Shown: positions 1-53,288 of the stretch, piece by piece
Position numbering within the stretch: the stretch's first letter is position 1
How the letters are laid out: each line of letters begins with the position of its first letter
Assembly (NCBI GenBank): GCA_964474375.1
Contig: CAYYSG010000003.1
Location: 1 to 53,288 of the forward strand
Length of the DNA: 53,288 nt
DNA from: an uncultured Candidatus Saccharibacteria bacterium
GTDB taxonomy: Bacteria > Patescibacteriota > Minisyncoccia > Phycocordibacterales > UBA9973
Direction of reading: 5' to 3'
Notes under the pieces: model-generated
Databases searched by the model: none
The model's input: only the letters and a program-made list of their open reading frames with translations
Told to the model about the DNA's origin: nothing
Translations under genes and position numbers: made by a program

Positions 1-55
1 GCTAGCGGGGTCCGTGCATGTAGCGAACCTGGCGCTGACGACCGGAACGGTCCAG
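1..55. repeat. Terminal overlap, identical to 53234-53288 (circular contig signature)
   Basis: GCTAGCGGGG...CGGTCCAG (55 nt) is identical at both ends. A third identical copy lies at 52751-52805. Confidence 0.9.
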
Positions 56-481
56 ACGTTGGGAAGCGTCCAGACAGTCGGAACCGGACAGGTTCTGGGA
101 ACCGTCCAGGGGTTAGCAGGAAGCGTCCATATCGCGTCCCAGCTTCCAGGCACGGTCGTCGCCCGACAGTACCAGGTATCCGAAGGGTTCTTCGGGACCG
201 TCTTTACAGCGGCGGTCACGAACGGAACGCTTATTCCGGCCCCCGGCGCGGGGACGTTCATCCGGGTCTGGGATGTCATGGTATCGGGCTCCGCCGCTGG
301 AACGGCCTTCCTGGAACTGGGCGACGGAACCCCGTTCGGGAACGTCTTCACAGCGGCCCAGGGCGGGTTCGCGCTGAACTCCCATCGCGGGGTCCGGACG
401 AACGCGGCGAACCAGGACGTCCTGTTCAATTGTTCGGCGGGGTCATGGGGCGTTACCGTCGCATGGACACGGGAAACATAG
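2..481 (+). CDS. 3' part of the repeat-rich virion fibre-like protein that starts at 51867 and spans the circular junction
   Basis: The frame continues from 53288 through the 55-nt overlap. It has the same LGTVQGLAGSVH repeats followed by a short C-terminal domain. Stop at 479-481. Confidence 0.8.
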   Translation, partial: LAGSVHVANLALTTGTVQTLGSVQTVGTGQVLGTVQGLAGSVHIASQLPGTVVARQYQVSEGFFGTVFTAAVTNGTLIPAPGAGTFIRVWDVMVSGSAAGTAFLELGDGTPFGNVFTAAQGGFALNSHRGVRTNAANQDVLFNCSAGSWGVTVAWTRET

Positions 482-484
482 CAT

Positions 485-721
485 ATGCTTCTATTGCTGT
501 TCGCAGGGTCCGGAAGCGGCCTTCCGATCCCCCCGGACTATCGGGGCCGGTCGACCGGCGCGGACCAGGACCTGGTCCTGGGCGTTACGGCGGACCGTCC
601 CCGAACGGGCGGCCTGGGCGGAACCAGTTCGCGGGTTCTGGGTCGAACAAATGACCAGGCCCGGACGGGCGGCGGCATAGCGGACCAGAACACGGTCCAG
701 GGGGGAACGACGGATGAATAA
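485..721 (+). CDS. Small hypothetical virion-module protein
   Basis: 78-aa ORF packed between structural genes; its end overlaps the next start. Confidence 0.6.
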   Translation: MLLLLFAGSGSGLPIPPDYRGRSTGADQDLVLGVTADRPRTGGLGGTSSRVLGRTNDQARTGGGIADQNTVQGGTTDE

Positions 722-1031
722 TTACGACGCGGGGGACAGCGTCCGGATGGACGTTCTGTTCACGGACGCGGGCGGGACCCCAGCGGACCCGACGCTGGTC
801 GTCCTGAACATTGTCCCGCCGCCCCAGCGCTTCGCGGGCGTGCCTGGAACGGTCCAGTATACGTACGCATCCGGGTCCATCACGAAGGCCAGCGTCGGGT
901 CTTATTACTATGACATGATCCCGGTCCCGTCTGGGACGTACGGGTTCTGGACTTATTACTTCAGCGGAAGCGGGGACGTGAACGCGGTCTTCCAGGGGGC
1001 GTTCGGCGTTCGTCAGGGGGTAACACCATGA
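714..1031 (+). CDS. Small beta-sandwich (Ig-like) structural protein
   Basis: 105 aa, YDAGDSVRMDVLFTD...GSYYYD pattern. ATGA overlap with the next gene. Confidence 0.6.
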   Translation: MNNYDAGDSVRMDVLFTDAGGTPADPTLVVLNIVPPPQRFAGVPGTVQYTYASGSITKASVGSYYYDMIPVPSGTYGFWTYYFSGSGDVNAVFQGAFGVRQGVTP

Positions 1032-1615
1032 GCCGATACGTAACCTTGACCGAACTGAAGGCCCATATGGGGATCGACGGGACGACGGATGACGCCCTGC
1101 TTCAGATGAAACTGGACGACGCGGAAGGTATTATCGAAGCGGCGACCCGGCGACAGTTCGTCGGAACCGTGGGGACCGCGTTCATAAACCGCTGGGTCGC
1201 GGACGGGCGTATCACGCAAGGGAATAAGCTCTGGTTCCGCTCTGACCTGCTGAACGTCGACCAGGTTATTCTGGGGGACGGACAGGTCGTCCCCCAGGGG
1301 TCATACTGGTTAGAACCGAATGAAGGCCCGCCCTATCGCGCTATCCGTCTGAAAACGTCGTACGTCTTCACATGGAATACGGACGCGGACATGACAGTCG
1401 CCGGAACCTGGGGATTTAGCGTTCAGCCGCCGCCGTCCATCCGGGACGCGACCGTCCGCTTCGCCGCGCATCTGTACCGGGTCAAGGATGTCGGGCCGAT
1501 GGGGGACATGATCGGCGGGGAAGACGTTGGGGCGCAACCTGTCCAGCGGGGCATCCCGACCGACGTCATGGATATTATACGGCGCTATCGTAGCCGGTCC
1601 GGGGGCGCGGTCTAG
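1028..1615 (+). CDS. Head-tail connector (gp6/gp15-like adaptor)
   Basis: YVTLTELKAHMGIDGTTDDALL...AEGIIE...TRRQF N-terminus and a WGFS..PP.IRDAT...AAHLY C-terminal pattern. Confidence 0.85.
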   Translation: MSRYVTLTELKAHMGIDGTTDDALLQMKLDDAEGIIEAATRRQFVGTVGTAFINRWVADGRITQGNKLWFRSDLLNVDQVILGDGQVVPQGSYWLEPNEGPPYRAIRLKTSYVFTWNTDADMTVAGTWGFSVQPPPSIRDATVRFAAHLYRVKDVGPMGDMIGGEDVGAQPVQRGIPTDVMDIIRRYRSRSGGAV

Positions 1616-1631
1616 CATATCCGTTCGACCC

Positions 1632-1641
1632 ATGCTATACT
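1632..1641 (+). promoter_or_regulatory. Extended -10 promoter (TGnTATACT) upstream of the glycosyltransferase cassette
   Basis: ATGCTATACT; near-identical boxes at 6292-6301 and 46717-46726. Confidence 0.6.
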
Positions 1642-1758
1642 ACGGCCCAGACGACGGACCCGTGTTAGGGGAAGTGGGTCCCCCTGACTGGGATATACTG
1701 AAGACCGGGAAGTCCTTCCCCGCTCCGTCGTTTCAATCTTTTCGCCGTTCGTGTTGAG

Positions 1759-1803
1759 AACAGCGACCAGACGCCCCAGGCGGGCATCCGGTCGCTGTTT
1801 TTT
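1759..1803 (+). terminator. Intrinsic terminator in the leader
   Basis: Stem AACAGCGACC/GGTCGCTGTT followed by TTTTGTTGTTT. Confidence 0.7.
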
Positions 1804-1814
1804 GTTGTTTGTAC

Positions 1815-1882
1815 CCGTGCATGGCTAGACTGGACGACGGTCCAGTTCGACGAAGGCGGACCCGCCCCGCCGCCATGCACGG
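1815..1882 (+). ncRNA. Candidate multi-stem cis-regulatory RNA
   Basis: 11-bp closing stem CCGTGCATGGC/GCCATGCACGG encloses hairpin ACTGGAC-GACG-GTCCAGT and a GGCGG/CCGCC hairpin. Confidence 0.45.
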
Positions 1883-1918
1883 TTAATACCAGGCGGGGAC
1901 CTAGCGGGAGGTCAGAAC

Positions 1919-3172
1919 ATGCGTGTTCTTCTGGTATCGGACGCCCCCTGGACCAGTTCCGGGTACGGGGTCCAGGTCGGGATGATCGCCCGGATGATCC
2001 AGGACCTGGGTCATGACGTCGCCATCCTGGCATCCTTCGGTCTGATGGGGTCGCCCCAGTCCTGGAACGGCATCCCCGTCTTCCCAGGCGGCATGGACGG
2101 CTTCGCAAACGATCGCATCGGCCCCGTATCACGCGACTGGGCGGCGGACGTGACAATCACGCTGAAGGACCTATGGGTCTATAGTCCCCAGAACTGGGGA
2201 CCGGGCGTCCGTTGGGCTCCAATGGTCCCCGTTGATCATGACCCCATCCCCCCGGCCCATGCGAACCTGCTTCGCGCCGCCCCCGCCTTCGCCACAATTG
2301 CCTATGCTCCGTTCGGCGTTCGCAAGCTGAAGGAAGCCGGGTTCGCGCCCCTGTACGCTCCGCATTCGTATGACCCGAACGTGTATTTCCCGATCGACCG
2401 GGCGAAGGCCCGGACGGACCTGGTCGTCGAAGACCATACCGGGCGGCGCTTACACGTCAATCCGGACGTCTTCCTGGTCGGGGTCGTCGCGGTCAATCGG
2501 GGCGGCGTTCCCAGTCGGAAGGCATGGCCCCAGCTACTGGAAGGGTTCGCCCTGTACGCCCAGTCCCATCCGGACGCGGTCCTGTACTGCCATACCTGGA
2601 AGTGTACGGACGGGGCGGAACAGGGCGTCAACCTGGTCGCCCTTGCGGACCAGTTAGGCGTTCTGGACCGGGTCGTCTTCGCGCCCCAGGAACCATACCG
2701 ATCGGGGGCGCTTGCGGACCAGTACATGCGGACCGTGTATAACGCCCTGGACGTCCTTCAGGCGACGTCGATCGGGGAAGGGTTCGGGGTCCCGACCCTG
2801 GAAGCCCAGGCATGCGGGGTCCCGGTCGTCGCGGGCGACTGGGCCGCCCAGGAAGACCTGGTCTTCGCGGGCGTTCAGCTTCCGAAGGGGGACGCGCTAT
2901 CGTTCTACGATGGACAGGCGTCCCATGCCTTTATCCCCCATCCGAAGGCGGTCGCCGGGTCACTCGCGGCCATTACGGAACGGGTCAGGGCGGACCGGGA
3001 TACGCTGAAACGGAACGCCCTTGCGGGCGCGAACGTCTTCCAGATCGCCCAGGTTCGGCCCCTATGGGATGCCGTCCTGAAGTCGCTTCAGAACCAGATC
3101 GACCAGTACCCGTATCGCGGCGTCGTCCGGGTCGTCCCGGCATCCGCCGTCTTCCCGAAGGTGAGCGCATGA
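1919..3172 (+). CDS. Glycosyltransferase family 4 (GT-B)
   Basis: MRVLLVSDAPWTSSGYG N-terminus, VVAVNRGGVPSRK and ALDVLQATSIGEGFGVPTLEAQACGVPVV (EX7E motif). Confidence 0.92.
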   Translation: MRVLLVSDAPWTSSGYGVQVGMIARMIQDLGHDVAILASFGLMGSPQSWNGIPVFPGGMDGFANDRIGPVSRDWAADVTITLKDLWVYSPQNWGPGVRWAPMVPVDHDPIPPAHANLLRAAPAFATIAYAPFGVRKLKEAGFAPLYAPHSYDPNVYFPIDRAKARTDLVVEDHTGRRLHVNPDVFLVGVVAVNRGGVPSRKAWPQLLEGFALYAQSHPDAVLYCHTWKCTDGAEQGVNLVALADQLGVLDRVVFAPQEPYRSGALADQYMRTVYNALDVLQATSIGEGFGVPTLEAQACGVPVVAGDWAAQEDLVFAGVQLPKGDALSFYDGQASHAFIPHPKAVAGSLAAITERVRADRDTLKRNALAGANVFQIAQVRPLWDAVLKSLQNQIDQYPYRGVVRVVPASAVFPKVSA

Positions 3173-4359
3173 GTACAGTCATTATTACGCCCTGGAAGAA
3201 CGGGGTCGGGGCCCTTCTGGAAGACTATAGCAGGGCCGCTGACGGGGCGATCGTCGTTACTGTGGACAATGGATCGGATGCGGCGGACGCGGACGCCCTG
3301 AAGGCGTACACGGAGCCCAGGGGGGTCTATATCCGGAACGAACGGAACCTGGGCTTCGCCGCCGCGAATAACCAGGGCTTCGCGGGGCATACCTGGGAAC
3401 CGGAAGACGTTATCGTCTTCCTGAACAGTGACGTCGCCCCGACCGGGCCCTGGCTGGAACAGGCCCATCGGGATGTCCGGGACGGATACCTGTACGGCCC
3501 GTCCCTGGGTCAGCAGTTCGTCGGGGGCATGATGGTCCCGTACCTGGAAGGATGGTGTATTGCCGCGACGAAGGCGACCTGGGACCGGCTCATCCTGAAG
3601 GGACAGGCCGGTCCCTGGGACGCGGTCAAGTATCCGAAGCCATACTGGGAAGACAACGATCTAACCCTTCGGGCCCTGGACGCGGGGATCGGCCTGGTCC
3701 AGACGGCATGGATGATCGCCCATAAGGGCGGAGCGACGGCGGGGGCCCTGGTCAAGCATGCCCAGGGATACGAAGCGAACCGGGCGACCTTCGCCCGCCG
3801 CGTTCTTCGGGCTCTGGACGTGGGGAAGGCATGGCCGGATACGCCCATCCAGGCCGCGTACCAGTTCCACGCCCAGAACCCGTCCGACATCCAGCATCAT
3901 ATCCCGACCCTGTTCGGCGTCGCCCAGGGAAACATTGTCGAACTGGGAACCCGATCGGGCGTGTCGACGGCGGCCTTCCTGGCCGGGGTCGAAGGTCGCG
4001 GCGGGTTCGTGACCAGCGTCGACATTGACCCCCAGTCCGCCCAGGTGGCAAGAGGTCATCCGAACTGGGACTTCGTCCAGGGGGATACCACGGACCCGGT
4101 CGTCGTCGCGTCGGTCCAGGCCAGGGGGCCGATCGACCTGCTTCTGGTCGACACACTCCACAACGAAGACCATGTCGCCCGCGAACTTGCGCTCTGGTCG
4201 CCCCTGGTCCGTCCGGGCGGGCGGATATGCGTCCATGATACGGAAACGTTCCCAGGGGTCCGGACCGCCGTCGAACGCTTCGTCGAACAGAGCGGATGGA
4301 CCGCCGTGTACGTCCTTCCGGGGAACGGCATGGCTATTCTGGAAAGGCCGAACACATGA
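3169..4359 (+). CDS. GT2-like glycosyltransferase fused to a class I SAM methyltransferase (Methyltransf_24-like)
   Basis: VTVDNGS, RNERNLGFAAANNQG, VFLNSD and YWEDNDL in the N-terminal half; VELGTRSGVST, IDLLLVDTLH and GGRICVHDT in the C-terminal half. Start set at the ATGA overlap at 3169. Confidence 0.85.
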   Translation: MSTVIITPWKNGVGALLEDYSRAADGAIVVTVDNGSDAADADALKAYTEPRGVYIRNERNLGFAAANNQGFAGHTWEPEDVIVFLNSDVAPTGPWLEQAHRDVRDGYLYGPSLGQQFVGGMMVPYLEGWCIAATKATWDRLILKGQAGPWDAVKYPKPYWEDNDLTLRALDAGIGLVQTAWMIAHKGGATAGALVKHAQGYEANRATFARRVLRALDVGKAWPDTPIQAAYQFHAQNPSDIQHHIPTLFGVAQGNIVELGTRSGVSTAAFLAGVEGRGGFVTSVDIDPQSAQVARGHPNWDFVQGDTTDPVVVASVQARGPIDLLLVDTLHNEDHVARELALWSPLVRPGGRICVHDTETFPGVRTAVERFVEQSGWTAVYVLPGNGMAILERPNT

Positions 4360-4619
4360 CCAGACTGGACGAACTGAAGGACGACCTGGACCTGATCTGG
4401 ACCGCGTTTTCGACCTGGGCGGGCCGGTTCTGGGGGCGCTGGAAGGACTTTGTTCTTCTGTTCTTCGCGCTATTGTTTCTGTACGTATGTGGAACCGTCC
4501 TGGGGACGGTTCAACACGATCGCCAGAAGCTGGAACTGGTCCGTTTGTGCGTCGACGCATATCCGGACCGAACGATGGAACAGTGTCAATTCATCGTCGA
4601 AACGCGGATGGGTCCATGA
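4356..4619 (+). CDS. Small single-pass membrane protein
   Basis: FVLLFFALLFLYVCG hydrophobic stretch; ATGA-coupled on both sides. Confidence 0.7.
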   Translation: MTRLDELKDDLDLIWTAFSTWAGRFWGRWKDFVLLFFALLFLYVCGTVLGTVQHDRQKLELVRLCVDAYPDRTMEQCQFIVETRMGP

Positions 4620-5794
4620 TTTACGATTGCGTAACATACTTCCAGGAACCGGACCTTCTGGAACTTCGCATGCTAGAACTGGACGGATGGGTCGACCGCT
4701 TCGTCGTCGTCGAAGGGAACCGGACCCATGCGGGGGCTCCGCGAACGTCCAGCATCCCCCAGGCCCTTCGGGACCGCTGGGGGGACCGCCTGGTCACGGC
4801 CATGATCGACCTTCCCGAAGGGGACGGCCCGACCTGGACATGGCGGCGGGAGATGGGACAGCGGAACGGCATCCGGGACGTTCTTCGGGCCCTGGGCGCG
4901 GCCCCCGACGACATGGTCCTGGTATCGGACGTCGACGAACTTCCAAATCAGTTCTTCATGTCCATCCTGTCCCAGGTTCCCCCGGACGCGGTCGCGGTCG
5001 CCCATCAGCAGTTACATTATTACGACGTCAATCATGTCAGTCCGGGCGGATGGCGCGGAACCAGGGCGACCCAGTTCGCAAACCTGGACGTTCTGGGCGC
5101 GGACGGGGTCCGCTATGCCGGGACGGAGCGGGGCGGCTTTCCGCGCATCCTGGAAGTTCCCCATGCCGGATGGCATTTTAGCTACTTCGGGGGGCTCCGC
5201 CGCATCCAGACGAAGATAACGTCGTTCCTTCATCAGGAATTCAACCTTCCGGAACATGTCGACATGTCGACGATCCATAAGCGGGTCCAGGCCGGGGATG
5301 ACGTGTACGGACGCCCGGAACAGTCGTTCCGCGTCGGGCCGGTCGACTATCCGCTTCCGTTCGCCATGTACGCCCGTCCGGGGGCCTGGGGTCACTTCTT
5401 CTATCATCAGTACCGCCCGGACTTCTGGGCGACCCTGCCGCCCCGCCTGGACGCCCAGGCCGTCTTCGACGTCCAGTCGCGTATCGTGCATGACGCCCCG
5501 AAGGACCTTCCGATCGTAATCATCGGGGACGTCGGGGCCCGCCTGACGATCGCCGTCGCATCCGTCGCGGGCTCCCGCCCGGTAATGGTCGACGCGAAAT
5601 ACAAAGCGTCCCAGGCGAAGAAGACCCGCTGGAACATCCAGGCGTACGGCCTGGGGGACCGGGTTCAGATGCGCGGCCTTCCGACGTACCACGAAACGAT
5701 CGGAGCGCTCATCCTGGACGACGACGAAGGATACCCGACCCCGTATCTTCAGCGGCGACTGGACCCGACCGGCTTCGTCGTCAAGGTGAGGTAA
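4616..5794 (+). CDS. Glycosyltransferase family 17-like (beta-1,4-GlcNAc transferase/MGAT3 type) with a degenerate Rossmann-like C-terminal domain
   Basis: MIYDCVTYFQEPDLLELRMLELDGWVDRFVVVEGNRTHAG, REMGQRN, LVSDVDE and GWHFSYFGG motifs. Confidence 0.85.
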   Translation: MIYDCVTYFQEPDLLELRMLELDGWVDRFVVVEGNRTHAGAPRTSSIPQALRDRWGDRLVTAMIDLPEGDGPTWTWRREMGQRNGIRDVLRALGAAPDDMVLVSDVDELPNQFFMSILSQVPPDAVAVAHQQLHYYDVNHVSPGGWRGTRATQFANLDVLGADGVRYAGTERGGFPRILEVPHAGWHFSYFGGLRRIQTKITSFLHQEFNLPEHVDMSTIHKRVQAGDDVYGRPEQSFRVGPVDYPLPFAMYARPGAWGHFFYHQYRPDFWATLPPRLDAQAVFDVQSRIVHDAPKDLPIVIIGDVGARLTIAVASVAGSRPVMVDAKYKASQAKKTRWNIQAYGLGDRVQMRGLPTYHETIGALILDDDEGYPTPYLQRRLDPTGFVVKVR

Positions 5795-5797
5795 CAC

Positions 5798-6277
5798 ATG
5801 GGGATTGTCCAGACCATAAACTTAATTCAGACAGTCAACGCGACCATAAGCGGGGTCCGGAAGGCCCCCCAGGTCGCCCAGTACCCGGTCAAGGCGGATA
5901 CGCCCGACCTTCCGCTGGTCTTGACTGTTCCAGCGGCGGGACAATGGCATCATTCCGGGATCGGCGGGGCGCTGAAACGCATGGACCGGGTCTATCGGAT
6001 TGTCTGCTTCCTGGAACCCCTGGGACAGAACGAACTTCCGGCCCGCTTCCAGGACAGCATGAACTTACTTCAGGCGTTCGTCGACATGTGGCTGACCCCG
6101 ACCGGAACGACCGGGTATCCGATCGCCCTTGCGGACCCGGTCAACGCGGGCGACCCCCAGGTCACGATCGCGGACGGGAACCCGCATAGTGATACCGGGC
6201 TCCGCCGCGACCTTCGCATGGGGAACGTACTCTACATGGGCTTTACTATTGACCTTCGGGTCCGGGAACTGTGGTAG
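5798..6277 (+). CDS. Tail terminator/completion-like protein
   Basis: Size, position directly upstream of the tail tube gene, and an alpha/beta pattern ending FTIDLRVRELW. Confidence 0.6.
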   Translation: MGIVQTINLIQTVNATISGVRKAPQVAQYPVKADTPDLPLVLTVPAAGQWHHSGIGGALKRMDRVYRIVCFLEPLGQNELPARFQDSMNLLQAFVDMWLTPTGTTGYPIALADPVNAGDPQVTIADGNPHSDTGLRRDLRMGNVLYMGFTIDLRVRELW

Positions 6278-6291
6278 ACACTAGCACGCCC

Positions 6292-6301
6292 ATGCTATAA
6301 T
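6292..6301 (+). promoter_or_regulatory. Extended -10 promoter upstream of the tail tube gene
   Basis: ATGCTATAAT. Confidence 0.65.
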
Positions 6302-6331
6302 CCTTCCAGCATAACCGCGACCCGTGATGAG

Positions 6332-6360
6332 GGCCGCCCCAGACTGGGGCGGCCTATTTT
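6332..6360 (+). terminator. Intrinsic terminator in the tail leader
   Basis: GGCCGCCCCA-GAC-TGGGGCGGCC followed by TATTTTGTTGT. Confidence 0.7.
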
Positions 6361-6384
6361 GTTGTCAACAAAAGGGGAAAGAAC

Positions 6385-7446
6385 ATGGGCGGAAGGAAGG
6401 AACTTCGGAGCGTACGTCTGGGCCTGGAAACGACCCCAGGGACCCCGGTCGTCCCGCGTTACATCTATCGCGGCATGGCCGACATGCCGGAAGACATGCG
6501 GGAACCCCAGATCGTCGAAGAACTGGTCGGTATCTTCGGGGGGACGGACCGTTCGTACATCCCGAAGCTGGAAGGTAGTATCAAGCTGGGTCAGACGGAA
6601 CTGACCTTCGAACAGGCCCCGCTGTTCTTCGCGGCGGCGGGCATGGGTTCAGCCGGGGGATCGGCCCAGGGCGTCAGCGGGTCCGCCGTCGACTTCCAGT
6701 TCCCCATCCCGACGAACACCCTTCCGACGACCCAGGCGTTCACGATCGAAGCCGGGGATAACGTCGAAGCCGAACAGCTTACGTACGCGCTGGTCAACGA
6801 ACTGACGTTGACGTTCCAGGGCGACGAAGCGGTCAAGGTCGAAAGTACCTGGGTCGCCCGCTCCGTGGAACGTGCGAACGCGGTCGGGTCCTTCAGCGCG
6901 GTCGGGACCCTGGTATCCCCTGCTGAAGTCATCCTGTCCGGGAAGGGTTCCGTCTTCATGAACCCGGCTGTATCGGGGGCGACCTTCGGAGCAACACGGG
7001 GGACCCCTGGAAACATCCTGGGCGGCCAGATCAGCTTTAAGAACATGTGGACCCTGAAACATCCGATTGACAGCGGACAGCTTTACTTCAGCACGGCGGC
7101 GTACGTCGGATGCGAGATCGAAGGCGAATTGACGTACGAACATTGGAACGTCGGGTCGACCGGCGCGGCGGGCTCCGCTGGACAGAAACAGGCATGGCGG
7201 GACCAGGCCGCCCAGCTCATGGAACTTCGCTGGGCTGGCGGGACCATCCCGACCGGGACGACGTATCAGAACAAGCTGCTTGACATTAAGCTCCCGATCA
7301 AGTACACGAAGTTCGACCCGCTGGACGACCAGGAAGGAAACGGGATCGTAACTGCTTCGTTCGTCAGTCACTATAACGAAGACGTTCCAGCGGCGGGGCG
7401 CGGGACCATCCAGGTCGTTCGTCGCGGTCAACTGGAACACTTGTAA
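6385..7446 (+). CDS. Major tail (tube) protein
   Basis: LGLETTPGTPV N-terminus, FTIEAGD and DDQEGNGIVTASF; lies upstream of the chaperone and tape measure genes. Confidence 0.8.
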   Translation: MGGRKELRSVRLGLETTPGTPVVPRYIYRGMADMPEDMREPQIVEELVGIFGGTDRSYIPKLEGSIKLGQTELTFEQAPLFFAAAGMGSAGGSAQGVSGSAVDFQFPIPTNTLPTTQAFTIEAGDNVEAEQLTYALVNELTLTFQGDEAVKVESTWVARSVERANAVGSFSAVGTLVSPAEVILSGKGSVFMNPAVSGATFGATRGTPGNILGGQISFKNMWTLKHPIDSGQLYFSTAAYVGCEIEGELTYEHWNVGSTGAAGSAGQKQAWRDQAAQLMELRWAGGTIPTGTTYQNKLLDIKLPIKYTKFDPLDDQEGNGIVTASFVSHYNEDVPAAGRGTIQVVRRGQLEHL

Positions 7447-7466
7447 GCAGGAAGAAGGCGGGGAAC

Positions 7467-7751
7467 ATGGCGACTATTAAGCTGGACGTGACCCTGAACG
7501 GGTCCACACGAACGATCAATGTTGATATTGACGAAATTCCGATGGGCTTCTTCGAAGACGTATCGAAGCTGGACCCGAAGGACATGGGCGGCATTCTGAA
7601 GGAATACGGCGGCATGCTGGGGTTTACGCATGAGGAAATGCGACAGATGCGGCGGGGCGACTTCATGCGCGTGCTGAACGCCATGAAGTCCATCACGGAA
7701 GGGGATGTATCCGCCGTCGTCCCCCCAGGGAACGGGCCCGGCTCCGCGTAG
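7467..7751 (+). CDS. Tail assembly chaperone (gpG-like)
   Basis: Small acidic ORF between the tail tube and tape measure genes. Confidence 0.75.
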   Translation: MATIKLDVTLNGSTRTINVDIDEIPMGFFEDVSKLDPKDMGGILKEYGGMLGFTHEEMRQMRRGDFMRVLNAMKSITEGDVSAVVPPGNGPGSA

Positions 7752-7918
7752 CACTCCGTCACGGCGGAAAGATGCATGTACGGTTCTGGGCCCTGAAGAT
7801 GGCGGAAAGCTGGGGGATGCATCCAGAAGACGTTCTATCACGTCCAGGCGGGTGGATATGGTGGAAATGGTATAGCGTCTGGGAAGCGGAAAAGTCCGCC
7901 GCCCAGTCGAAGAAGTAA
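7721..7918 (+). CDS. -1 frame extension of the tail chaperone (gpGT-like), missing from the ORF track
   Basis: Open -1 frame reading PPRERARLRVALRHGGKMHVRFWALKMAESWGMHPEDV...KK*. Candidate slippery heptamer C CCC CCA at 7721-7727. Confidence 0.65.
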   Translation, partial: PPRERARLRVALRHGGKMHVRFWALKMAESWGMHPEDVLSRPGGWIWWKWYSVWEAEKSAAQSKK

Positions 7919-7923
7919 CCCGC

Positions 7924-10305: not shown

Positions 10306-10306
10306 T

Positions 10307-12745: not shown

Positions 12746-12758
12746 AAGGAGGGAACCC

Positions 12759-13127
12759 ATGCGAACCCTGTCCATCATCCTGGGAACGATCGTCGTCGCC
12801 GCCGCGCTGCTTCTGGGCGTCCAGACGCCCGCCCGCGCATCCGGCCCGCTGGACTGTTCGACGTATACGCCCGACCAGGCCCGCCCCCAGTTAGTGATCA
12901 GCGAACACATGACCCGCTCCCAGCTTGCCACGTCCGAACAGACGGTCCAGGTCCGGGCCTGGGCGATCGGGGATACGGACTACGTCCTGTCCGATACGCT
13001 GTCCATGACCGGAACCCTGGTCGTTCCAGCGGGGGTCGACTTCGTTCAAGTGACCCCGTATAGCGGGACGTTCTCATTGTGTCCGCTGGCGTACACATCC
13101 GCCCTTCCAGTCGTGAGAACCCCATGA
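12759..13127 (+). CDS. Secreted protein with a signal peptide
   Basis: MRTLSIILGTIVVAAALLLGVQTPARA signal; C-terminus SALPVVRTP. Confidence 0.7.
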   Translation: MRTLSIILGTIVVAAALLLGVQTPARASGPLDCSTYTPDQARPQLVISEHMTRSQLATSEQTVQVRAWAIGDTDYVLSDTLSMTGTLVVPAGVDFVQVTPYSGTFSLCPLAYTSALPVVRTP

Positions 13128-14724: not shown

Positions 14725-14727
14725 AGC

Positions 14728-15105: not shown

Positions 15106-15107
15106 CA

Positions 15108-15153
15108 AAACGGGACCCGCTTTGATCGTGCCCTATCTAGGCGTGTCCCGTTT
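15108..15153. terminator. Stem-loop at the end of the late arm
   Basis: AAACGGGAC...GTCCCGTTT inverted repeat right after the 15105 stop. Confidence 0.45.
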
Positions 15154-15229
15154 CACTTTACACATAGCGATCATTCTCGCTACGCGCTGTTCTGGGCCCA
15201 CACGGGTCCAGGCGTTCAGTATAACAGAA

Positions 15230-37765: not shown

Positions 37766-37801
37766 GAACCGGACACATACTGGTTCAGGAAGGGACGTTC
37801 T

Positions 37802-41570: not shown

Positions 41571-41887
41571 TTGACCCATACCTGAAGCTCATGTTCGGCC
41601 TGGGCCTTCTGCTGATCTGTCTGGGCGGAGCGCTGGTCCGGGTCCCCGCCGTTCGGCGCGGGACGTACGTCGTCGGGGTCTGGATCGTCTGGGGATGGGA
41701 ACAGCTTGTCTACGTCGTCGCCCAGGCCGTCGCATGGGTCTATACGGTCGCCCTGCTTCTGATGGGCGCGGTTCTGGCGGTCGTCGCCCTGGTCGGGTAC
41801 GGGATCGGACTGGCGGCGGGGCTGGTCGTCCGTATCGTTCTCTGGGTCTGGGTCGCCTTCGTGGAAGGGTATAAGGAAACGGTATGA
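41567..41887 (+). CDS. Hydrophobic membrane protein between terL and portal
   Basis: Almost wholly hydrophobic 106 aa; ATGA-coupled on both sides. Confidence 0.7.
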   Translation: MIDPYLKLMFGLGLLLICLGGALVRVPAVRRGTYVVGVWIVWGWEQLVYVVAQAVAWVYTVALLLMGAVLAVVALVGYGIGLAAGLVVRIVLWVWVAFVEGYKETV

Positions 41888-46854: not shown

Positions 46855-49215
46855 ATGCCTGACCAGAACGCGCCGCCCCCAGGGGCCGATCAATCCGTCA
46901 AGCCGGGGTCCGGAAGCGGACCGGGCGGCAAAATGACACCGGCTGAACGGGCCCGCCATGCGTCCCTGGTCCGCTGGAAGAAGGAACAGCCCTTCGCGGC
47001 CCGACTGGCCGCCGCCCGCGAAGCCCGGAAGGCCGCGAAGAAGGGCGGCAAGGGGAAGGGGAAGGGCGGCGGGGCGAAGGAAACGCCCGACCAGAAGAAG
47101 GCGAAGGCCCAGGCGGAAGCAGCGAAGAACCGCGCCCAGGTCATGGCCGCGTTCAGTGGCGCGTATGACACGGACATCCTGAAGAACATGGAAGCCCTGG
47201 TCCGGGGGGACGACCTACCCGAAGACGGGGCGGACGACATGATCCGGTCTGGACTGGCGGAGCGGGTCGGACCGGACGGAACCCTGGTCCCGACCCCGGC
47301 GCTTCGTCAACTCTGGAACGCGGCATCCGATGGGGACCGGGGCAAGGCGAAGGAAATCATCGCACGGGCGGAAGACAGTTACGACCAGAAGGTCCAGAAG
47401 GACCAGGCGAAGGCCGAACGCGAAGCCGGACGTACGTCCGGCAAGAACGGAACCGAAGGCCGGGGTCTGGACAAGTCCGGGAACCCAGCGGACGCGATCG
47501 GGAAGAAGGGCGAAAACGCCCCCCAGGACGCGACAGGCGGGTCCGGGACGGGCCTGAAGGACAAGCTGAAGGGAATGATGGGGGAAGCCGGTTCCGGCGC
47601 GTCTGGGGCCGCCCAGGAAAAGAAGAAGGGCGGCGGGGGCGGCGGCGGGAAGGGGAAGGACGACAAACCGACCCCGGAACAAACCGCAGCGGACACCGCA
47701 TCCCAGACGACGGGCCGGTCCGCCGTGTCCGACCAGGATGTATCCGCCCTTCGGGACCTGTCCCAGGGCCGGACGGCGAAGAACACGGACCGCCTTCGGG
47801 CCCTGGGCTATATCGAAACGGACGACGACGGGAACGACGTCGCCACATCCGAAGGACGGCGGGCGCTGTCCGCCCTGGAACGCGGGGACCTGGGAGCATA
47901 CCAGGCCGCATATGAACAGGCCCGGTCGAAGAAGCGTTCAGCGGACCGGGCCCAGGTCGACCGGAACCAGCGGGGGAACGCCCAGGCCGAACAGGACGCG
48001 GAACGGCGGAACGCGATACGGCGGGCCGTGACCCGGAACCCGATCAAAGCGCACGAAGGAACAGACATGAGCTATGCGGACATCCTGGAAGCCCTGGACC
48101 CGCTCCCGGACCAGTTAGCAGACTACGCGGACCGCCTGGTCCAGGACGGAACGAAGGCCGGGGCGCGAAACAGCGCAGCGGACCAGGCCCTGATCAATGA
48201 AATTTACAACAAAGCGGAAGACCTGCTTCTGTTAGCGGAAGAACTGGGGGCCGAACTGGGCGTCGACCTGGGGGACGAAGACCAGGAAGAACCGGACGAC
48301 GACATGGACGACGACGCCATGAAGGCGCTGTCCTATGACCAGGCGTCCGAACAGGTCCGCTCCGCCTGGTATCAGGCCATGCGGTCGAACGGCCCGCCCA
48401 TGCTGGACGACGACGGTCCGGCCCGTATCTATCCGATCGCAATCTACCCGGACGCCCTGATTATTGAACAGGGCACGAAGAAGTACAAAGTCGGGTACAC
48501 GGTCCAGAACGGCGACTATACCTTCGCGGACCGCTCCGCCTGGGTCCAGGTCGAACCGGCCTGGGTCCCGGTTCAGGCCCCGCCGTCCGGCCTGGAAGCG
48601 GTCAAGGCCCTGAACGATACCGGGAAGGTCGGGGCGTACGCCATCCTGTTCGGGAGTGAAGATACCCCGGACCTGTCCCCGTTCCAGGACTTCTTCACAA
48701 AGAAGACCGACTTCTGGCTAGGGGAATGGTCGAAGCGGCCCATGCTGTTCCATCACGCAATGGACCCGGCGACGAAGGCCGCCCCTGTTATCGGGACCTG
48801 GAATAAGGCGGTCCTGGACGACGTCGGGGTCTGGATGGAAGGTCAACTGGACATGGCGCATAAGTATGCGTCCGCCGTCCAGCAACTGGTCACAATGGGG
48901 AAGCTCCGCGTGTCCAGTGATAGCGCCCCCCACCTGGTCGTCCGCGACCAGAAGCCGAACGGGACGAACGAAATCAAGCGCTGGCCGATCATGGCCGCGT
49001 CCTTGACCCCGACCCCAGCGGAACCGCGTTTACTCCCGGTCGAAGCGCTCAAGAGTGTGTTCAGCGCGGCGGGTCTTGACTTGCCGCTGGAACTTATGCA
49101 GACCCAGGACGCCCCCCAGGCGTCGACGAAGGCGGCCCAGGCCGCGAAGGTCGACCCTGAACACGAACGTCAACGTCTGCTTCTGGAACTGGATTTAATG
49201 GAACTGGAAGGCTAA
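46855..49215 (+). CDS. Prohead protease (HK97/S78-like) with a roughly 570-aa charged N-terminal extension
   Basis: C-terminal GAYAILFG...FFTKKTDF...LFHH...GVWMEGQL...SSDSAPHLV...SLTPTPAEPR. Confidence 0.85.
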   Translation: MPDQNAPPPGADQSVKPGSGSGPGGKMTPAERARHASLVRWKKEQPFAARLAAAREARKAAKKGGKGKGKGGGAKETPDQKKAKAQAEAAKNRAQVMAAFSGAYDTDILKNMEALVRGDDLPEDGADDMIRSGLAERVGPDGTLVPTPALRQLWNAASDGDRGKAKEIIARAEDSYDQKVQKDQAKAEREAGRTSGKNGTEGRGLDKSGNPADAIGKKGENAPQDATGGSGTGLKDKLKGMMGEAGSGASGAAQEKKKGGGGGGGKGKDDKPTPEQTAADTASQTTGRSAVSDQDVSALRDLSQGRTAKNTDRLRALGYIETDDDGNDVATSEGRRALSALERGDLGAYQAAYEQARSKKRSADRAQVDRNQRGNAQAEQDAERRNAIRRAVTRNPIKAHEGTDMSYADILEALDPLPDQLADYADRLVQDGTKAGARNSAADQALINEIYNKAEDLLLLAEELGAELGVDLGDEDQEEPDDDMDDDAMKALSYDQASEQVRSAWYQAMRSNGPPMLDDDGPARIYPIAIYPDALIIEQGTKKYKVGYTVQNGDYTFADRSAWVQVEPAWVPVQAPPSGLEAVKALNDTGKVGAYAILFGSEDTPDLSPFQDFFTKKTDFWLGEWSKRPMLFHHAMDPATKAAPVIGTWNKAVLDDVGVWMEGQLDMAHKYASAVQQLVTMGKLRVSSDSAPHLVVRDQKPNGTNEIKRWPIMAASLTPTPAEPRLLPVEALKSVFSAAGLDLPLELMQTQDAPQASTKAAQAAKVDPEHERQRLLLELDLMELEG

Positions 49216-49221: not shown

Positions 49222-50604
49222 ATGACAGTAGCAGAACTGATCGCCCAGGCGAAGCAGAAGCTGGACGCGGGGGACCTGGACGGCGCGAAGGCGCTTCGTG
49301 ACCAGGCCGCCATGCTGAAGGACCTGGAAGCCCTGGAAACGCCCGCCCCCGCCCCGAAGGAAGAAGTCAAGCGTCTGGACTTCGGGAACCCGGCCCCCGT
49401 CGTCGAACAGTCGACCGCCGCGACGAAGGCGATCGAAGTCGCGTATGTGAAGAAGTTCGGGAACCTGGACGAAAGTGTCAATCAGGTCATGCGCGAACTG
49501 TACGGGACGGAAAGTTACGCTCTGATCCGCGCCGCGAAAATGGCGGACATGAACCGCTATCTTCGGACGAACACGTACGATCCCCGCTTCCAGAAGATGG
49601 TCCTGTTGACCCCGGACCAGGTCCTGGCGGCGATCATGACGGGCGTTCCCGTCGCGGACGGACAGTACACGATCAAAGCGACAATGGTCGAAGCCCAGGA
49701 CACCCTGGGCGGATACCTGGTCCCGGAAGAATACAACCAGGACATGGTCGAACGTCTTCCGGGCCTGACGGTCGTCCGCTCCCGTGCCAAGAAGTACAAC
49801 ACATCCCGCGATGCGCTGTCCTTCCTGGTTCGCACGGGCGGCGACAAGCGGCGTATCGGCGCGGTCCGGTCGAAAATGACCAGCGAGAACCCGACCGGAA
49901 CGTATAGCACGAACGCGACCTGGGGGAAGCTCGCCATCCCGGTCCATGTGAACCTGTCGAAGGTTCCGGTCACGAAGTCACTTCTGGAAGACGCGACTAT
50001 GAACATCATGTCGGATGTTCTTATGCCGGAATTCCAGACCGACCAGGCCATTCTGGAAGATCAGCAGTTCCTGTGTGGAAGCGGTTCCGACGAACCTCAG
50101 GGCATCCTGAAGCCTGACTTTACGGCCCCCTGGTCGCCCGATACCGTGACCCAGAACACGGGTTCCGCCGCCGCCGTCAACTTTGACGGCATGGTCGCGG
50201 CTCCGTTCAAGCTGGGAGCCCAGTACCGGGCGCGGAAAAACCCGAACGTCGCCTGGACGTTCAACGCGAACACGGCGGCCAGTATCGCGGCCCTGAAGGA
50301 CCTGGATGGCGCGTATTACTGGGCGGAAATCCGGGGGAATAACGCGGTCGGGAACCCGGACACCATCCGGGGATGGCAATACGCGGAAAGCGAAGCGCTT
50401 CCGAACGAAGCCGCGAACGTGTACGTCGGTATCTTCGGGGACTTCAGCGGATACCGCATCGTGGACCGCATCGGCATGAGCGTCGAACGCTATTCCGATA
50501 GCGCGACGGCGGATACCGACACGGTCGTCTTCTATTGCCGCCGCCGCTATGGCGGTCAGGTCGCGGAAGGCTGGAAGTTCGTCGGTCTGAAGTGTTCGAC
50601 CTAG
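49222..50604 (+). CDS. Major capsid protein (HK97 fold)
   Basis: Delta-domain-like N-terminus, GGYLVPEEY, IFGDFSGYRIVDRIG and RRRYGGQV. Confidence 0.95.
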   Translation: MTVAELIAQAKQKLDAGDLDGAKALRDQAAMLKDLEALETPAPAPKEEVKRLDFGNPAPVVEQSTAATKAIEVAYVKKFGNLDESVNQVMRELYGTESYALIRAAKMADMNRYLRTNTYDPRFQKMVLLTPDQVLAAIMTGVPVADGQYTIKATMVEAQDTLGGYLVPEEYNQDMVERLPGLTVVRSRAKKYNTSRDALSFLVRTGGDKRRIGAVRSKMTSENPTGTYSTNATWGKLAIPVHVNLSKVPVTKSLLEDATMNIMSDVLMPEFQTDQAILEDQQFLCGSGSDEPQGILKPDFTAPWSPDTVTQNTGSAAAVNFDGMVAAPFKLGAQYRARKNPNVAWTFNANTAASIAALKDLDGAYYWAEIRGNNAVGNPDTIRGWQYAESEALPNEAANVYVGIFGDFSGYRIVDRIGMSVERYSDSATADTDTVVFYCRRRYGGQVAEGWKFVGLKCST

Positions 50605-51135: not shown

Positions 51136-51143
51136 AACGCGAA

Positions 51144-51167
51144 GCCGGGGACCAGCCGGTCCCCGGC
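51144..51167. other. Stem-loop after the decoration gene
   Basis: GCCGGGGACC-AGCC-GGTCCCCGGC. Confidence 0.5.
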
Positions 51168-51183
51168 AAGTCTGGACTAGCAC

Positions 51184-51864
51184 ATGATCGCATTCGTTCA
51201 GGAAGCCCCGACCCAGAATACCGCCGCCGCTTCGCATGTGGTTCCCATAAGCAGCGGCGGCGGTTCGTGTTTGGTCGCCGTGATTGCGGTCCGGACGGGG
51301 GCGACCCAGTCTGTCACCGGGGTCAGCGACGACGCGGGGGATACCTGGACGGCGGGTCCGATCGGCCTGGTATCCGGGTCGAACACGCGCATGGAAATCT
51401 GGTACGCGCTGAACGCCGCCGCCGTGACCCAGGTCCAGGTCGACCTGTCGAACAGTCTTCCCGCGACGATCAACATCCTGGAATTCTCCGGGGTTCTGGA
51501 CGCTTCCGCCCTGGACCAGTCGAATAGCGCGTCGAACGCGTCGACGTCGACCCCGACGTCCGGGTCTGTAACCACGGCAAACGCGGACGACGTTTTGATC
51601 GCCGCCGTGTCCAGTACGTCGACGGCGACCCTAAACAGCGTGACCGCTGGATGGAACGCGCTGACCGGGTTCAGCGGGGTCGGGACGACGAAGCAGGGCA
51701 TGCAGAATGCGTATCAGATCGTCAACGCGACCGGAACCTATGAATGTATTTTTACCATGTCCGCGTCCCAGAACTGGGGCGGGGTCATCCTGGCGCTGAA
51801 GGCGGCGGCGGCCCCAGCGGCGGCCCGTGGTTATATGACGCCTAATATTCACTTCTGGGGATAA
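51184..51864 (+). CDS. Ser/Thr/Ala-rich beta-sandwich virion accessory protein
   Basis: VTGVSDDAGDTW, EIWYALN, ILEFSGV and TTANADDVLIAAV pattern. Confidence 0.65.
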   Translation: MIAFVQEAPTQNTAAASHVVPISSGGGSCLVAVIAVRTGATQSVTGVSDDAGDTWTAGPIGLVSGSNTRMEIWYALNAAAVTQVQVDLSNSLPATINILEFSGVLDASALDQSNSASNASTSTPTSGSVTTANADDVLIAAVSSTSTATLNSVTAGWNALTGFSGVGTTKQGMQNAYQIVNATGTYECIFTMSASQNWGGVILALKAAAAPAAARGYMTPNIHFWG

Positions 51865-51866
51865 AC

Positions 51867-53288
51867 ATGGCCGACAATGTAACATTCCAGAATACCGTAA
51901 CCGCAACGCCCCCGACCGCGACGGTCGTCGCAACGGATGAGATCGGCGGCGTACACTTCCAGCGGGCGAAGATTGCGTTCGGGGAAGATGGGACCGCCTG
52001 GTCTGTATCAGACGGGACCCCGTTCCCTGTCCAGACGATCGGAACTGGACAGGTCCTGGGAACCGTCCAGGGCCTTCCAGGAAGCGTTCATATCGCGTCC
52101 CCTATTCCGGGCACGGTCCAGGCGCTGGGGACGTTCCAGGGCCTTCCAGGAAGCGTACACGTAGCGAACCAGGTCGACGCCCAGATCGTCGGGACCGTCC
52201 AGGCGCTGGGGACCCTTCAGCCGTTAGCAGGTTCCGTCCATGTGGCGAACCTGGCGCTGACGACCGGGACCGTCCAGGTCCGGGGAAGCGTTCAGCCGTT
52301 AGCGGGCTCCGTCCATCTTGCATCCGGCCTTCCGGGAACCGCCCAGGTCCTGGGAACCGTCGTCGTCATGCCGCTTCCGACTGGGGCTGGAACGCCCTTG
52401 ACGGTTCGACTATCGGACGGGGCGTCGTTCTATACCGCGTCCGGGGGCGCGGGCGGCGGCGGAGCATCCGCAACCGACCAGGCCGCCTTCAGCGCCGGGG
52501 TTCTGACGGTCGCCCCCATTGCGGGGGTCAGTACCATTACGGCGATCGGACAGGGAAGCGTCGGGGCCCTTGCGATGGACCAGTCCCGCGTCCTGTACGT
52601 CCGGGGGACCCTGGACGGCGGAACGGTTCAACCCCTTGCGGGCTCCGTGCATGTGGCGAACGTTCCCCAGGTCACGGTCGGGGGAACCGTCCAGGTTCTA
52701 GGAAGTGTCCAGGCGGTCGGAACCGCCCAGGTTCTAGGAACGGTCCAGGGGCTAGCGGGGTCCGTGCATGTAGCGAACCTGGCGCTGACGACCGGAACGG
52801 TCCAGGCGCTGGGGACCGTTCAACCGTTAGCGGGGTCGGTCCATGTGGCGAACCTGGCGCTGACGACCGGGACCGTCCAGGTCCGGGGAAGCGTTCAGCC
52901 GTTAGCGGGCTCCGTCCATCTTGCATCCGGCCTTCCGGGCACAGTCCAGACGCTGGGAACCATTGTCAATACCGGCTTCGGGTCCAGCGGGACCCCGACC
53001 GCCGCCGCCGAACAGTCCGCCGTCCGGTTCTGGGTCGACCTGAACGGTCGACAGGTCATCCGGGGAACGATCGACCAGGTCCTGGGAACCATCCAGGCAC
53101 TGGGAACCGTTCAGCCGTTAGCAGGTTCCGTGCATGTCGCAAATGTTCCCCAGGTCACGGTCGGGGGAACCGTCCAGGTTCTAGGAAGTGTCCAGGCGGT
53201 CGGAACCGCCCAGGTTCTAGGAACGGTCCAGGGGCTAGCGGGGTCCGTGCATGTAGCGAACCTGGCGCTGACGACCGGAACGGTCCAG
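51867..53288 (+). CDS. 5' part of a roughly 615-aa repeat-rich fibre-like protein, missing from the ORF track because it has no stop before the window end
   Basis: MADNVTFQ...TDEIGGVHFQRAKIAFGEDG, then many GTVQxLAGSVHVAN repeats. Open to 53288 and continues in frame at 56-481. Confidence 0.85.
   Translation, partial: MADNVTFQNTVTATPPTATVVATDEIGGVHFQRAKIAFGEDGTAWSVSDGTPFPVQTIGTGQVLGTVQGLPGSVHIASPIPGTVQALGTFQGLPGSVHVANQVDAQIVGTVQALGTLQPLAGSVHVANLALTTGTVQVRGSVQPLAGSVHLASGLPGTAQVLGTVVVMPLPTGAGTPLTVRLSDGASFYTASGGAGGGGASATDQAAFSAGVLTVAPIAGVSTITAIGQGSVGALAMDQSRVLYVRGTLDGGTVQPLAGSVHVANVPQVTVGGTVQVLGSVQAVGTAQVLGTVQGLAGSVHVANLALTTGTVQALGTVQPLAGSVHVANLALTTGTVQVRGSVQPLAGSVHLASGLPGTVQTLGTIVNTGFGSSGTPTAAAEQSAVRFWVDLNGRQVIRGTIDQVLGTIQALGTVQPLAGSVHVANVPQVTVGGTVQVLGSVQAVGTAQVLGTVQGLAGSVHVANLALTTGTVQ
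52662..52805 (+). repeat. 144-bp perfect direct repeat (second copy at 53145-53288)
   Basis: Base-by-base identity. A separate 101-bp perfect repeat lies at 52236-52336 and 52839-52939. Confidence 0.85.
53234..53288. repeat. Terminal overlap, identical to 1-55
   Basis: Direct comparison. Confidence 0.9.

Follow-up and report, generated by a model that had tools for sequence, protein, structure and literature searches.

Genome organization and distribution

This report concerns the 53,288-bp stretch formed by positions 1 to 53,288 of contig CAYYSG010000003.1 (referred to throughout as the window; G+C content 63.6%) and the large set of short DNA words that are avoided in it, among which the trimer GAG and its reverse complement CTC are the shortest. 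The window is a complete, circularly permuted genome of the siphovirus type from soil metagenomes; the phage is probably lytic, and its host is most likely an actinomycete. Genes were assigned heuristically (from the length of open reading frames (ORFs), the phase pattern of G+C, and Pfam matches), and the genome-wide word counts given below are independent of this gene list. Neither tRNA genes nor matches to Rfam families were found in the window. The principal modules and genes are as follows.

1-15 kb, + strand: head-tail connector, tape-measure and tail genes
Within the 1-15 kb module, + strand: three-gene glycosyltransferase/methyltransferase cassette
15-37 kb, - strand: replication arm
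28772-29938, - strand (replication arm): homologue of the DNA polymerase III beta-clamp (dnaN)
30347-31675, - strand (replication arm): DnaB
37736-38971, + strand: lysin
40170-41570, + strand: large terminase
41884-43629, + strand: portal
49222-50604, + strand: HK97-fold major capsid gene, used below as the orthologue yardstick for recoding

The sequence recurs in soil and other metagenome runs belonging to three studies and is therefore not a curiosity of one assembly. A cultured relative was not detected at the nucleotide level among 50,697 phage records, and the single capsid protein gave no matches in viral and genome collections; the capsid family comprises about 140 metagenomic relatives with identities of 35-66%. 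A profile scan of 185,579 species genomes revealed no prophage relatives. Comparison of lysin, DnaB and DnaN with phages and plasmids, undertaken for host inference, yielded either identities of 26-36% to mixed phyla or no match. The nearest terminases of cultured phages are those of Thermobifida phage P1312 (44% identity) and of Streptomyces phages (36-41%), and the Chloroflexota host assumed in the preliminary description of this DNA finds no support.

Trimer deficit

Unless another null model is named, counts were compared with those expected from base composition (O/E, observed/expected). GAG occurs 119 times against 1037 expected copies (O/E 0.11; 0.13 under a first-order Markov model) and CTC 139 times against 926 (O/E 0.15), which confirms for the whole genome the near-absence of this pair stated in the preliminary description and leaves the Markov-corrected ratio of GAG far from 1. 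The hand count over positions 1-480 given there was exact (GAG 0, CTC 2, GTG 1, CAC 4, GAC 12, GTC 18, CAG and CTG together 23). GTG (301 copies, O/E 0.30) and CAC (307 copies, O/E 0.32) were also depleted, and the other trimers of the strong-weak-strong (S-W-S) type were normal or enriched, as in the case of GAC (O/E 1.70) and GTC (1.89). High ratios were likewise obtained for GAA (2.32) and TTC (2.34). The deficit was even over 27 bins of 2 kb and in both transcription arms, so that the skew does extend to the - strand arm, as had been claimed.

All three codon phases were affected in both sense and antisense (GAG 49/26/31, CTC 58/20/34), and no strand bias was seen (GAG 119 versus CTC 139; sense 106 versus antisense 112). 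In the 8.8 kb outside the gene list GAG was found 18 times, with 158 copies expected. Upstream of 39 genes, the ribosome-binding sites follow the pattern GGAAGGA and seldom contain a GGAGG core, the genome-wide count of GAGG/CCTC being 15 against 625 expected; translation signals thus obey the avoidance, too. The site upstream of dnaN may serve as an example.

28754-28771, - strand: GGAAGGA-type ribosome-binding site of dnaN

The missing words are accordingly defined at the level of double-stranded DNA, as they are lost symmetrically from both strands, independently of phase, and also from ribosome-binding sites and unassigned DNA. Avoidance of Shine-Dalgarno-like translation signals was rejected as a cause, since antisense is depleted as much as sense.

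A stricter null model was obtained by permuting synonymous codons within each gene, which keeps every protein and the codon usage of every gene. The resulting z-scores were -15.6 for GAG, -18.1 for CTC, -15.4 for GTG and -17.5 for CAC; they ranged from -12 to -17 for GCAG/CTGC, CACC/GGTG and CCAA/TTGG and from -4 to -10 for palindromes (CGGCCG -9.7), and reached +12.4 for GTCGAC. The divergence of 4-mer frequencies from base composition was 0.32 bit in the window, compared with 0.06-0.20 bit in four cultured actinophages and 0.07-0.12 bit in relatives from the same family. Phage Lika has hardly any AAA/TTT, ATA or AAT, as would follow if its third-codon-position G+C were near 100%; because trimer deficits can be codon artefacts of this kind, the phase-resolved and codon-permutation tests were applied to the window.

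Codon usage and the capsid orthologues

The codon choices listed in the preliminary description were borne out: 92% of Glu codons are GAA, 71% of His codons CAT and 69% of Val codons GTC, and only 5% of Leu codons are CTC. G/C-ending codons are nevertheless retained for Lys (AAG 85%), Gln (CAG 91%), Asp (GAC 86%) and likewise Asn, which shows that the skew is not an effect of third-position composition. In the capsid gene, Glu is encoded by GAA and GAG in a ratio of 24/1, compared with 7/16, 3/24, 0/23 and 5/20 in relatives of 61-66% identity; the ratio of GTC to GTG for Val is 27/5 in the window and about 13/20 in the relatives, and the Leu codon CTC is used once as opposed to 7-11 times. In the use of Lys and Gln codons and in amino-acid composition, the capsid does not differ between the window and its relatives, and the recoding is therefore both synonymous and derived. 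The words were removed through the choice of synonymous codons and codon pairs, with protein composition unaltered. The possibility that the proteins have instead lost Glu, His, Val or Leu residues was rejected on the basis of this unchanged capsid composition.

Avoided words

The words avoided over the whole genome are summarized in one line.

1-53288, genome-wide: GAG/CTC (outside SGGAGC), GGTG/CACC, GTGG/CCAC, GTGC/GCAC, GCAG/CTGC, CCAA/TTGG, GANTC, CTNAG, CCWWGG, CYCGRG and about 30 six-bp palindromes

Nine hexamers that had been described as rare on reading (GGCGCC, GCCGGC, CCGCGG, CGGCCG, CCCGGG, CAGCTG, GGATCC, CCATGG and CTGCAG) are indeed present in 0-2 copies each, against 18-55 expected. 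Among the 56 testable 6-bp palindromes (those with at least five copies expected), 30 fall below 0.1 of expectation; CCGCGG, CGGCCG, GGCGCC, GCGCGC and CGCGCG are absent (about 55 copies of each expected), CCCGGG occurs once and GCCGGC twice. Degenerate palindromes are similarly affected, with observed/expected counts of 1/178 for GANTC, 5/178 for CTNAG, 1/72 for CCWWGG, 1/136 for CYCGRG and 1/72 for GWGCWC. A maximal-order Markov analysis reduced the avoidance to the minimal words GAG/CTC, CCAA/TTGG, GAATC/GATTC (0 copies), 13 hexamers, and CCGCCGG. Palindromes account for 12 of these 13 hexamers, whereas only about 3% would be expected by chance from their share of hexamer pairs, a pattern that is the classic mark of type II restriction.

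The short asymmetric words are removed in both orientations, and their loss depends on context. GGAGC/GCTCC has an O/E of 0.62 and contains 123 of the 258 surviving copies of GAG/CTC, whereas the other 15 words of the form NGAGN lie between 0.01 and 0.22. As GGAGC occurs in every reading phase and on both strands, its survival is not a coding requirement; 119 of the 123 copies are preceded by a C or a G, since AGGAG and TGGAG are avoided as well. At the level of tetramers, six of the eight GAG-containing pairs are nearly eliminated (O/E 0.02 for GAGG, 0.04 for CGAG, 0.08 for AGAG, 0.10 for GAGT, 0.10 for GAGA and 0.15 for TGAG), and the sole pentamer that is free of all six is the survivor, GGAGC. 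The contexts of GTG differ in the same manner: GGTG has an O/E of 0.09 and GTGG and GTGC of 0.16-0.17, and CGTG (0.54), GTGA and GTGT lie at 0.5-0.6. This dependence on context argues against a single reader of GWG/CWC and for the union of several short targets.

Over-represented words

Most of the words that had been described as abundant are in true excess, namely GTCGAC (137 copies, 7.6-fold), CGATCG (97 copies, 5.4-fold), GACGTC (66 copies), TCCGGA (55 copies), CGTACG (37 copies), CCWGG (733 copies, 3.7-fold) and GGWCC (546 copies, 2.8-fold); GGGCCC (63 copies, 1.15-fold), which was named with them, is merely not avoided. When codons were permuted with about 50 avoided words kept at or below their observed counts (a constrained null for which the list of forbidden words is incomplete), CCWGG rose from about 170-190 copies to 250-300 (observed 273-352) and GGWCC came near its observed level. 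The excess of these two words is thus mostly a passive by-product of funnelling the sequence into the words that remain. GTCGAC (128 copies against 75) and CGATCG (87 against 45) stayed in excess under the same permutation. Both are also over-represented in ordinary DNA of Streptomyces and its phages (3.2-fold and 1.9-fold, respectively, in plasmid SAP1, and 3.4-fold in phage Dagobah), and there is no need to assume a special function for them.

Relatives and a sister strain

In the contigs of the relatives nearest by capsid (66, 63, 62 and 61% identity), O/E amounts to 0.71-0.91 for GAG/CTC and to about 1 for GTG/CAC. Relatives avoid 10-18 of 32 testable palindromes, but a different set: several of them avoid GTCGAC, TCCGGA and GGGCCC, all common in the window, and one over-uses GCGCGC, which the window lacks. 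The set of avoided words is specific to the lineage of the window, and the trait is recent, having arisen within that one lineage.

A sister strain, which was assembled in a different soil study, differs from the window at about 2.4% of positions. Among 187 of the approximately 1,000 differences, sampled and taken as unpolarised substitutions, five create a GAG/CTC, compared with 31.1 +/- 4.9 expected when the same base changes are placed at positions of matching codon phase and synonymous status; none of 1000 simulations gave a number as low. Seven substitutions destroy a GAG/CTC. For GTG/CAC the deficit was weak (15 created, 21.7 expected). The scarcity of newly created GAG/CTC shows that the exclusion is maintained at present rather than being a fossil, i.e., that the constraint on this word is still acting.

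The 34-kb contig of the sister strain is about 2.2 kb shorter than the window somewhere within 20.0-28.7 kb, and it skips 54 bp at positions 32259-32314, beside an 11-nt tandem repeat (CGATTTTTGTT, positions 32210-32237). These differences in length point to variation in gene content and repeat length within the population.

Restricted vocabularies of other kinds were seen in distant capsid relatives. That of IMGVR_UViG_3300011116_000533 (15.6 kb) is still more restricted than that of the window, with a 4-mer divergence of 0.41 bit, no AGCT (57 copies expected) and 0-1 copies of AGGGC, CGGGC, GGGCA, GGCCC, CCAGC and GCAGC, and this contig is a candidate for another extreme case of multi-site avoidance. 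Two distant relatives of low G+C content have lost nearly all CG-containing words: in Ga0233425_10002375 (20.6 kb, 29.5% G+C) the O/E of CGC/GCG is 0.00 and ACGC, AGCG, CGAG, CGCA and GCGA are absent, and in L019 there are no copies of GATC or TCGA.

Parallels in cultured Streptomyces phages

Phage phiSAJS1 of S. avermitilis (NC_029005.2, positions 1-50000) contains no CGAG/CTCG (631 copies expected), and AGGAG, CCAAG and CTCTC are down to 3-4 copies each, where about 100 would be expected; the window, too, is nearly devoid of these four words. Plasmid SAP1, a replicon of the host of phiSAJS1, has O/E values of 1.05 for CGAG and 1.62 for AGGAG, so that in this pair it is the phage, and not the composition of its host, that shows the avoidance. 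Two phages of the same genus as phiSAJS1, both isolated on S. griseus, have lost GGAG/CTCC and keep CGAG at normal frequency: YDN12 (NC_028974.1, positions 1-50000) has one copy against 638 expected, and Xkcd426 (KU530220.1, positions 20000-64477) has none against 564. NootNoot (MF347636.1, positions 1-20000), an unrelated phage of the S. griseus strain used for YDN12 and Xkcd426, has an O/E of 1.09 for GGAG; GATC is absent from these 20 kb (78 copies expected). CCGCGG, CTCGAG, CTGCAG and GAGCTC are represented by 0-1 copies each in the window, Dagobah, phiSAJS1 and YDN12.

The phages of cluster BG (Woodruffvirus), to which phiSAJS1, YDN12 and Xkcd426 belong, thus share with the window the full loss of a GAG-containing asymmetric 4-mer from both strands. 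Their terminase is 36-38% identical to that of the window; the capsid, like most of the remaining genes, is unrelated. Each has lost a single 4-mer, whereas the window has lost six of eight GAG-containing 4-mer pairs and several GTG-containing ones. In the open-access literature that was searched, including publications on cluster BG/Woodruffvirus, the absence of GGAG or CGAG from Streptomyces phages was not mentioned.

Methyltransferases and candidate nucleases of the phage

Four genes of the replication arm may bear on how its DNA is marked or cut.

26830-27291, - strand: DUF559 protein (Vsr-like endonuclease fold), directly downstream of the following methyltransferase (Pfam PF04480, E=3.4e-6; PHROG 503)
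27373-28398, - strand: beta-class N6/N4 DNA methyltransferase with CcrM-like motifs (Pfam N6_N4_Mtase, partial matches to NCBIfam CcrM/PRK13699, PHROG 67)
33339-34253, - strand: ORF with a weak GIY-YIG match below the Pfam cut-off (PF01541, E=5.5e-4, 20.6 bits versus a cut-off of 22.6)
35485-36759, - strand: Dam-family (D12 class) N6-adenine DNA methyltransferase (Pfam MethyltransfD12, TIGR00571 dam, PHROG 56)

Neither NCBIfam nor PHROGs nor sequences from the PDB gave a specificity for the two methyltransferases or the DUF559 protein; a close solved structure was not found for the methyltransferase at 27373-28398, and homologues of the methyltransferases and the DUF559 protein were not present in the available contig fragments of relatives. 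Some of the retained words, for example GATC, which is tolerated in the window (271 copies, O/E 1.5), may be shielded by the two adenine methyltransferases, and the DUF559 protein and the GIY-YIG ORF are possible phage-borne nucleases. The adjacent methyltransferase and DUF559 genes (26830-28398, - strand) may form a pair resembling a restriction-modification system. CcrM-like enzymes typically target GANTC, which is all but absent from the window (one copy, 178 expected).

Interpretation

Two explanations had been offered in the preliminary description: a large panel of host restriction or DNA-targeting specificities that funnelled the genome into a few permitted words, and a single defence or repair system that recognizes motifs containing CWC/GWG. 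The first of these is favoured by the data and is probably correct in its essentials: the DNA would have been recoded by natural selection, cumulatively and synonymously, and would thereby have shed the words that many sequence-specific host nucleases recognize. It is consistent with the palindromes among the minimal hexamers, the disappearance of degenerate palindromes, the different sets in relatives, the constraint seen in the sister strain, and the mostly passive excess of CCWGG and GGWCC; the part of it that does not stand in full is the derivation of the abundant words, as GTCGAC and CGATCG remain above the constrained null.

The selective agents would be restriction-modification enzymes met across a history of many hosts or strains. 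The loss of palindromes would stem from orthodox type II enzymes, and that of the short asymmetric words (GAGG/CCTC, CGAG, AGAG, GAGA, GAGT, TGAG, GGTG, GCAG and CCAA) from type IIS, type III or uncharacterized enzymes. The loss of GAG/CTC at the level of trimers could then arise from about six 4-bp avoidances that overlap (HGAG plus GAGD) and together spare only SGGAGC, and the over-represented words would in part be the vocabulary remaining for encoding the same proteins.

The avoidance of restriction sites is a classic observation in phages of Bacillus and Staphylococcus, which lack the sites of host enzymes. Phage T7 escapes type III restriction in another way, with all of its EcoP15I sites in one orientation; the words concerned resemble those of the window in being short, asymmetric and adenine-containing, whereas in the window both orientations have been removed. 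The orientation escape of T7 is discussed in a survey of site avoidance in about 4000 phages by Rusinov et al. (2018), which found almost exclusively orthodox type II sites to be avoided, asymmetric sites rarely or never, type III sites rarely and type I and IIG sites not (PMC6286503). The window shares with the cases surveyed the synonymous mode of removal, the dominance of palindromic 4-6-mers, a differing set in relatives, and, as the phage is probably lytic, a setting in non-temperate double-stranded DNA phages, where avoidance is strongest; it differs in breadth, with about 30 hexamer palindromes, several degenerate palindromes, at least ten short asymmetric words, and a loss that is visible even in trimers (PMC6286503). 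The palindromic part of the pattern is therefore a strong instance of a known phenomenon, and the unusual part is the near-elimination of very short asymmetric words.

Several points weigh against an origin in a panel of host nucleases. The scan of 185,579 species genomes brought no prophage relative to light that would name a host, and none of the avoided words, the asymmetric ones included, was matched to an enzyme. A panel of at least 40 specificities would be very large for a single lineage. The near-total loss of asymmetric words of 3-5 bp is not predicted by known restriction biology (PMC6286503). Since NootNoot keeps GGAG, the host used for isolation does not by itself dictate which word is lost in the cultured analogues. 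Finally, funnelling accounts for only part of the excess of GTCGAC and CGATCG, and the enrichment may thus not be wholly passive.

A class of uncharacterized readers of 4-bp NGAG/GAGN words is possible. A bolder version, to be regarded as tentative and on balance doubtful, is that soil actinomycetes carry widespread, uncharacterized DNA-targeting defences (or phage-borne nucleases) reading such words, of which the cultured Streptomyces phages would have been purged of one each and the window of nearly the whole family save SGGAGC.

Alternative explanations

A single unknown defence or repair system reading the trimer class GWG/CWC, with the palindrome losses as a separate and ordinary restriction effect, would accommodate the depletion of both GAG/CTC and GTG/CAC among otherwise normal or enriched S-W-S trimers, as well as a depletion that arose in one lineage and, for GAG/CTC, is still maintained. 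In that form it is unsupported and appears unlikely: GGAGC (0.62) stands apart from the other 15 NGAGN words (0.01-0.22), GGTG (0.09) differs from CGTG (0.54), GTGA and GTGT, GTG/CAC is barely constrained in the sister strain, and the cultured Streptomyces phages each lose one 4-mer, CGAG or GGAG, and not a trimer.

It is similarly improbable that the avoidance derives in part from short-site nucleases of the phage itself (the DUF559 and GIY-YIG candidates), directed against host DNA or rival phages, to which the phage would be immune through lacking the sites. The methyltransferase/DUF559 gene pair and the weak GIY-YIG ORF are compatible with such an arrangement, as are the HNH endonuclease encoded by the cluster BG phages that lack a 4-mer (YDN12 also encodes a methylase) and the retention of GGAG in NootNoot on the same S. 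griseus strain, which is expected if the phage sets the word. One or two nucleases could account for one or two words, but not for at least 40, most of them classic type II palindromes; moreover, no specificity could be assigned to the candidate proteins, and the available contig fragments of relatives contained no homologues of them.

Methyl-specific restriction is prominent in Streptomyces (S. avermitilis, S. coelicolor), and a phage that avoided the motifs of host methyltransferases would carry unmarked DNA and escape methylation-dependent (type IV) restriction in its next host. Most of the short asymmetric words contain an adenine (CGAG, GGAG, GAGG, AGGAG, CCAAG) and resemble the methylation motifs of type III and IIG enzymes; CGAG is the methylation motif of ModA4 of H. 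influenzae. Such motifs are seldom avoided on account of a cognate nuclease (PMC6286503), which would fit an escape from methylation. This explanation is nonetheless quite improbable, since the two adenine methyltransferases of the phage would themselves expose it to restriction dependent on N6-methyladenine and since the lost palindromes are an ordinary type II set.

That the phage has taken over the skew from its host, either as a host-wide genome signature or as a copied preference for certain codons in translation, is suggested by the unusual codon use (GAA, CAT, GTC) and by the frequent drift of phages towards host usage. It was considered very unlikely: the deficit is equal in all phases, in antisense, in ribosome-binding sites and in unassigned DNA, it survives fixed codon usage while other two-fold codon families keep G/C endings, close relatives do not share the GAG/GTG deficit, and in the cultured analogue the replicon SAP1 does not share the avoidance of phiSAJS1.

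A depletion of GAG/CTC as the protospacer adjacent motif (PAM) of a CRISPR system would be expected to look like the avoidance of a 3-nt word on both strands, and the type I-E system of E. coli tolerates GAG as a PAM. PAM depletion in phage genomes was reportedly described by Kupczok and Bollback in 2014 and is said to be weak; it resembles the present case in affecting a word of 2-4 nt on both strands, whereas the depletion in the window is 8- to 50-fold, dependent on context and accompanied by the loss of palindromes. The type I-E PAM of S. avermitilis was measured as AAG (PMC4762764), and AAG/CTT is enriched in the window (O/E 1.24-1.31), this being the only actinomycete PAM checked, from which that of the host may differ. 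The exemption of GGAGC would be unexpected and the palindromes would be left unexplained, which makes the PAM a highly improbable cause.

A context-specific mutational process (a deaminase or error-prone repair) that eroded the words, to which the strong enrichment of GAA/TTC, the most enriched trimers and one transition away from GAG/CTC, might point, is hardly credible in view of the mixed replacements (a transition from GAG to GAA, and transversions from GTG to GTC and from CTC to CTG) and of a pattern that is strand-symmetric, palindrome-centred and context-specific.

Significance

If the reading as a panel of host nucleases is true, the genome is a natural record, in about 40 words, of the specificities survived by a lineage of soil phages, many more than are imposed by any single characterized host. 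Since surveys report next to no avoidance of type I, IIG or III sites, the near-total loss of GAGG, CGAG, AGAG, GGTG and similar words would point to undescribed defences or nucleases whose sites are asymmetric and very short. The question can be put to the test in cultured pairs, namely phiSAJS1 on S. avermitilis, and YDN12 or Xkcd426 on S. griseus ATCC 10137. The genome further shows how far 53 kb of coding sequence can be recoded with its proteins unchanged, and knowing which words are tolerated and which are forbidden could help in designing DNA intended to enter restriction-rich actinomycetes.

Further features of the genome

A non-coding array of 1.3 kb lies between the head and connector modules (positions 52020-53288, running over the junction to about position 13). 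It contains at least 15 copies of a 27-nt motif with the consensus GGGAACCGTCCAGGTCCTGGGAACCGT, and a segment of 186 nt is repeated 483 bp downstream with 95% identity. The array may be a set of protein-binding sites for packaging, replication or regulation.

The cassette inside the structural module (positions 1919-5794) consists of glycosyltransferases (GT1, GT2 and GT17-like) that are fused to or paired with methyltransferases of the Methyltransf_24/CmcI type. It is kept in the family (relative contigs L003, 16627-19245; L004, 18826-21386; L075, 8490-12972) and resembles the virion-glycosylation genes of some actinophages.

Two very large ORFs of 726 and 786 aa (amino acids) are situated between portal and capsid (43574-45754 and 46855-49215, respectively). 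The 786-aa ORF has a prohead protease (S78) domain near its C-terminus only (residues 588-688), and the 726-aa ORF has only a marginal match to a capsid family. Relatives carry an ORF of 760-994 aa in the same position.

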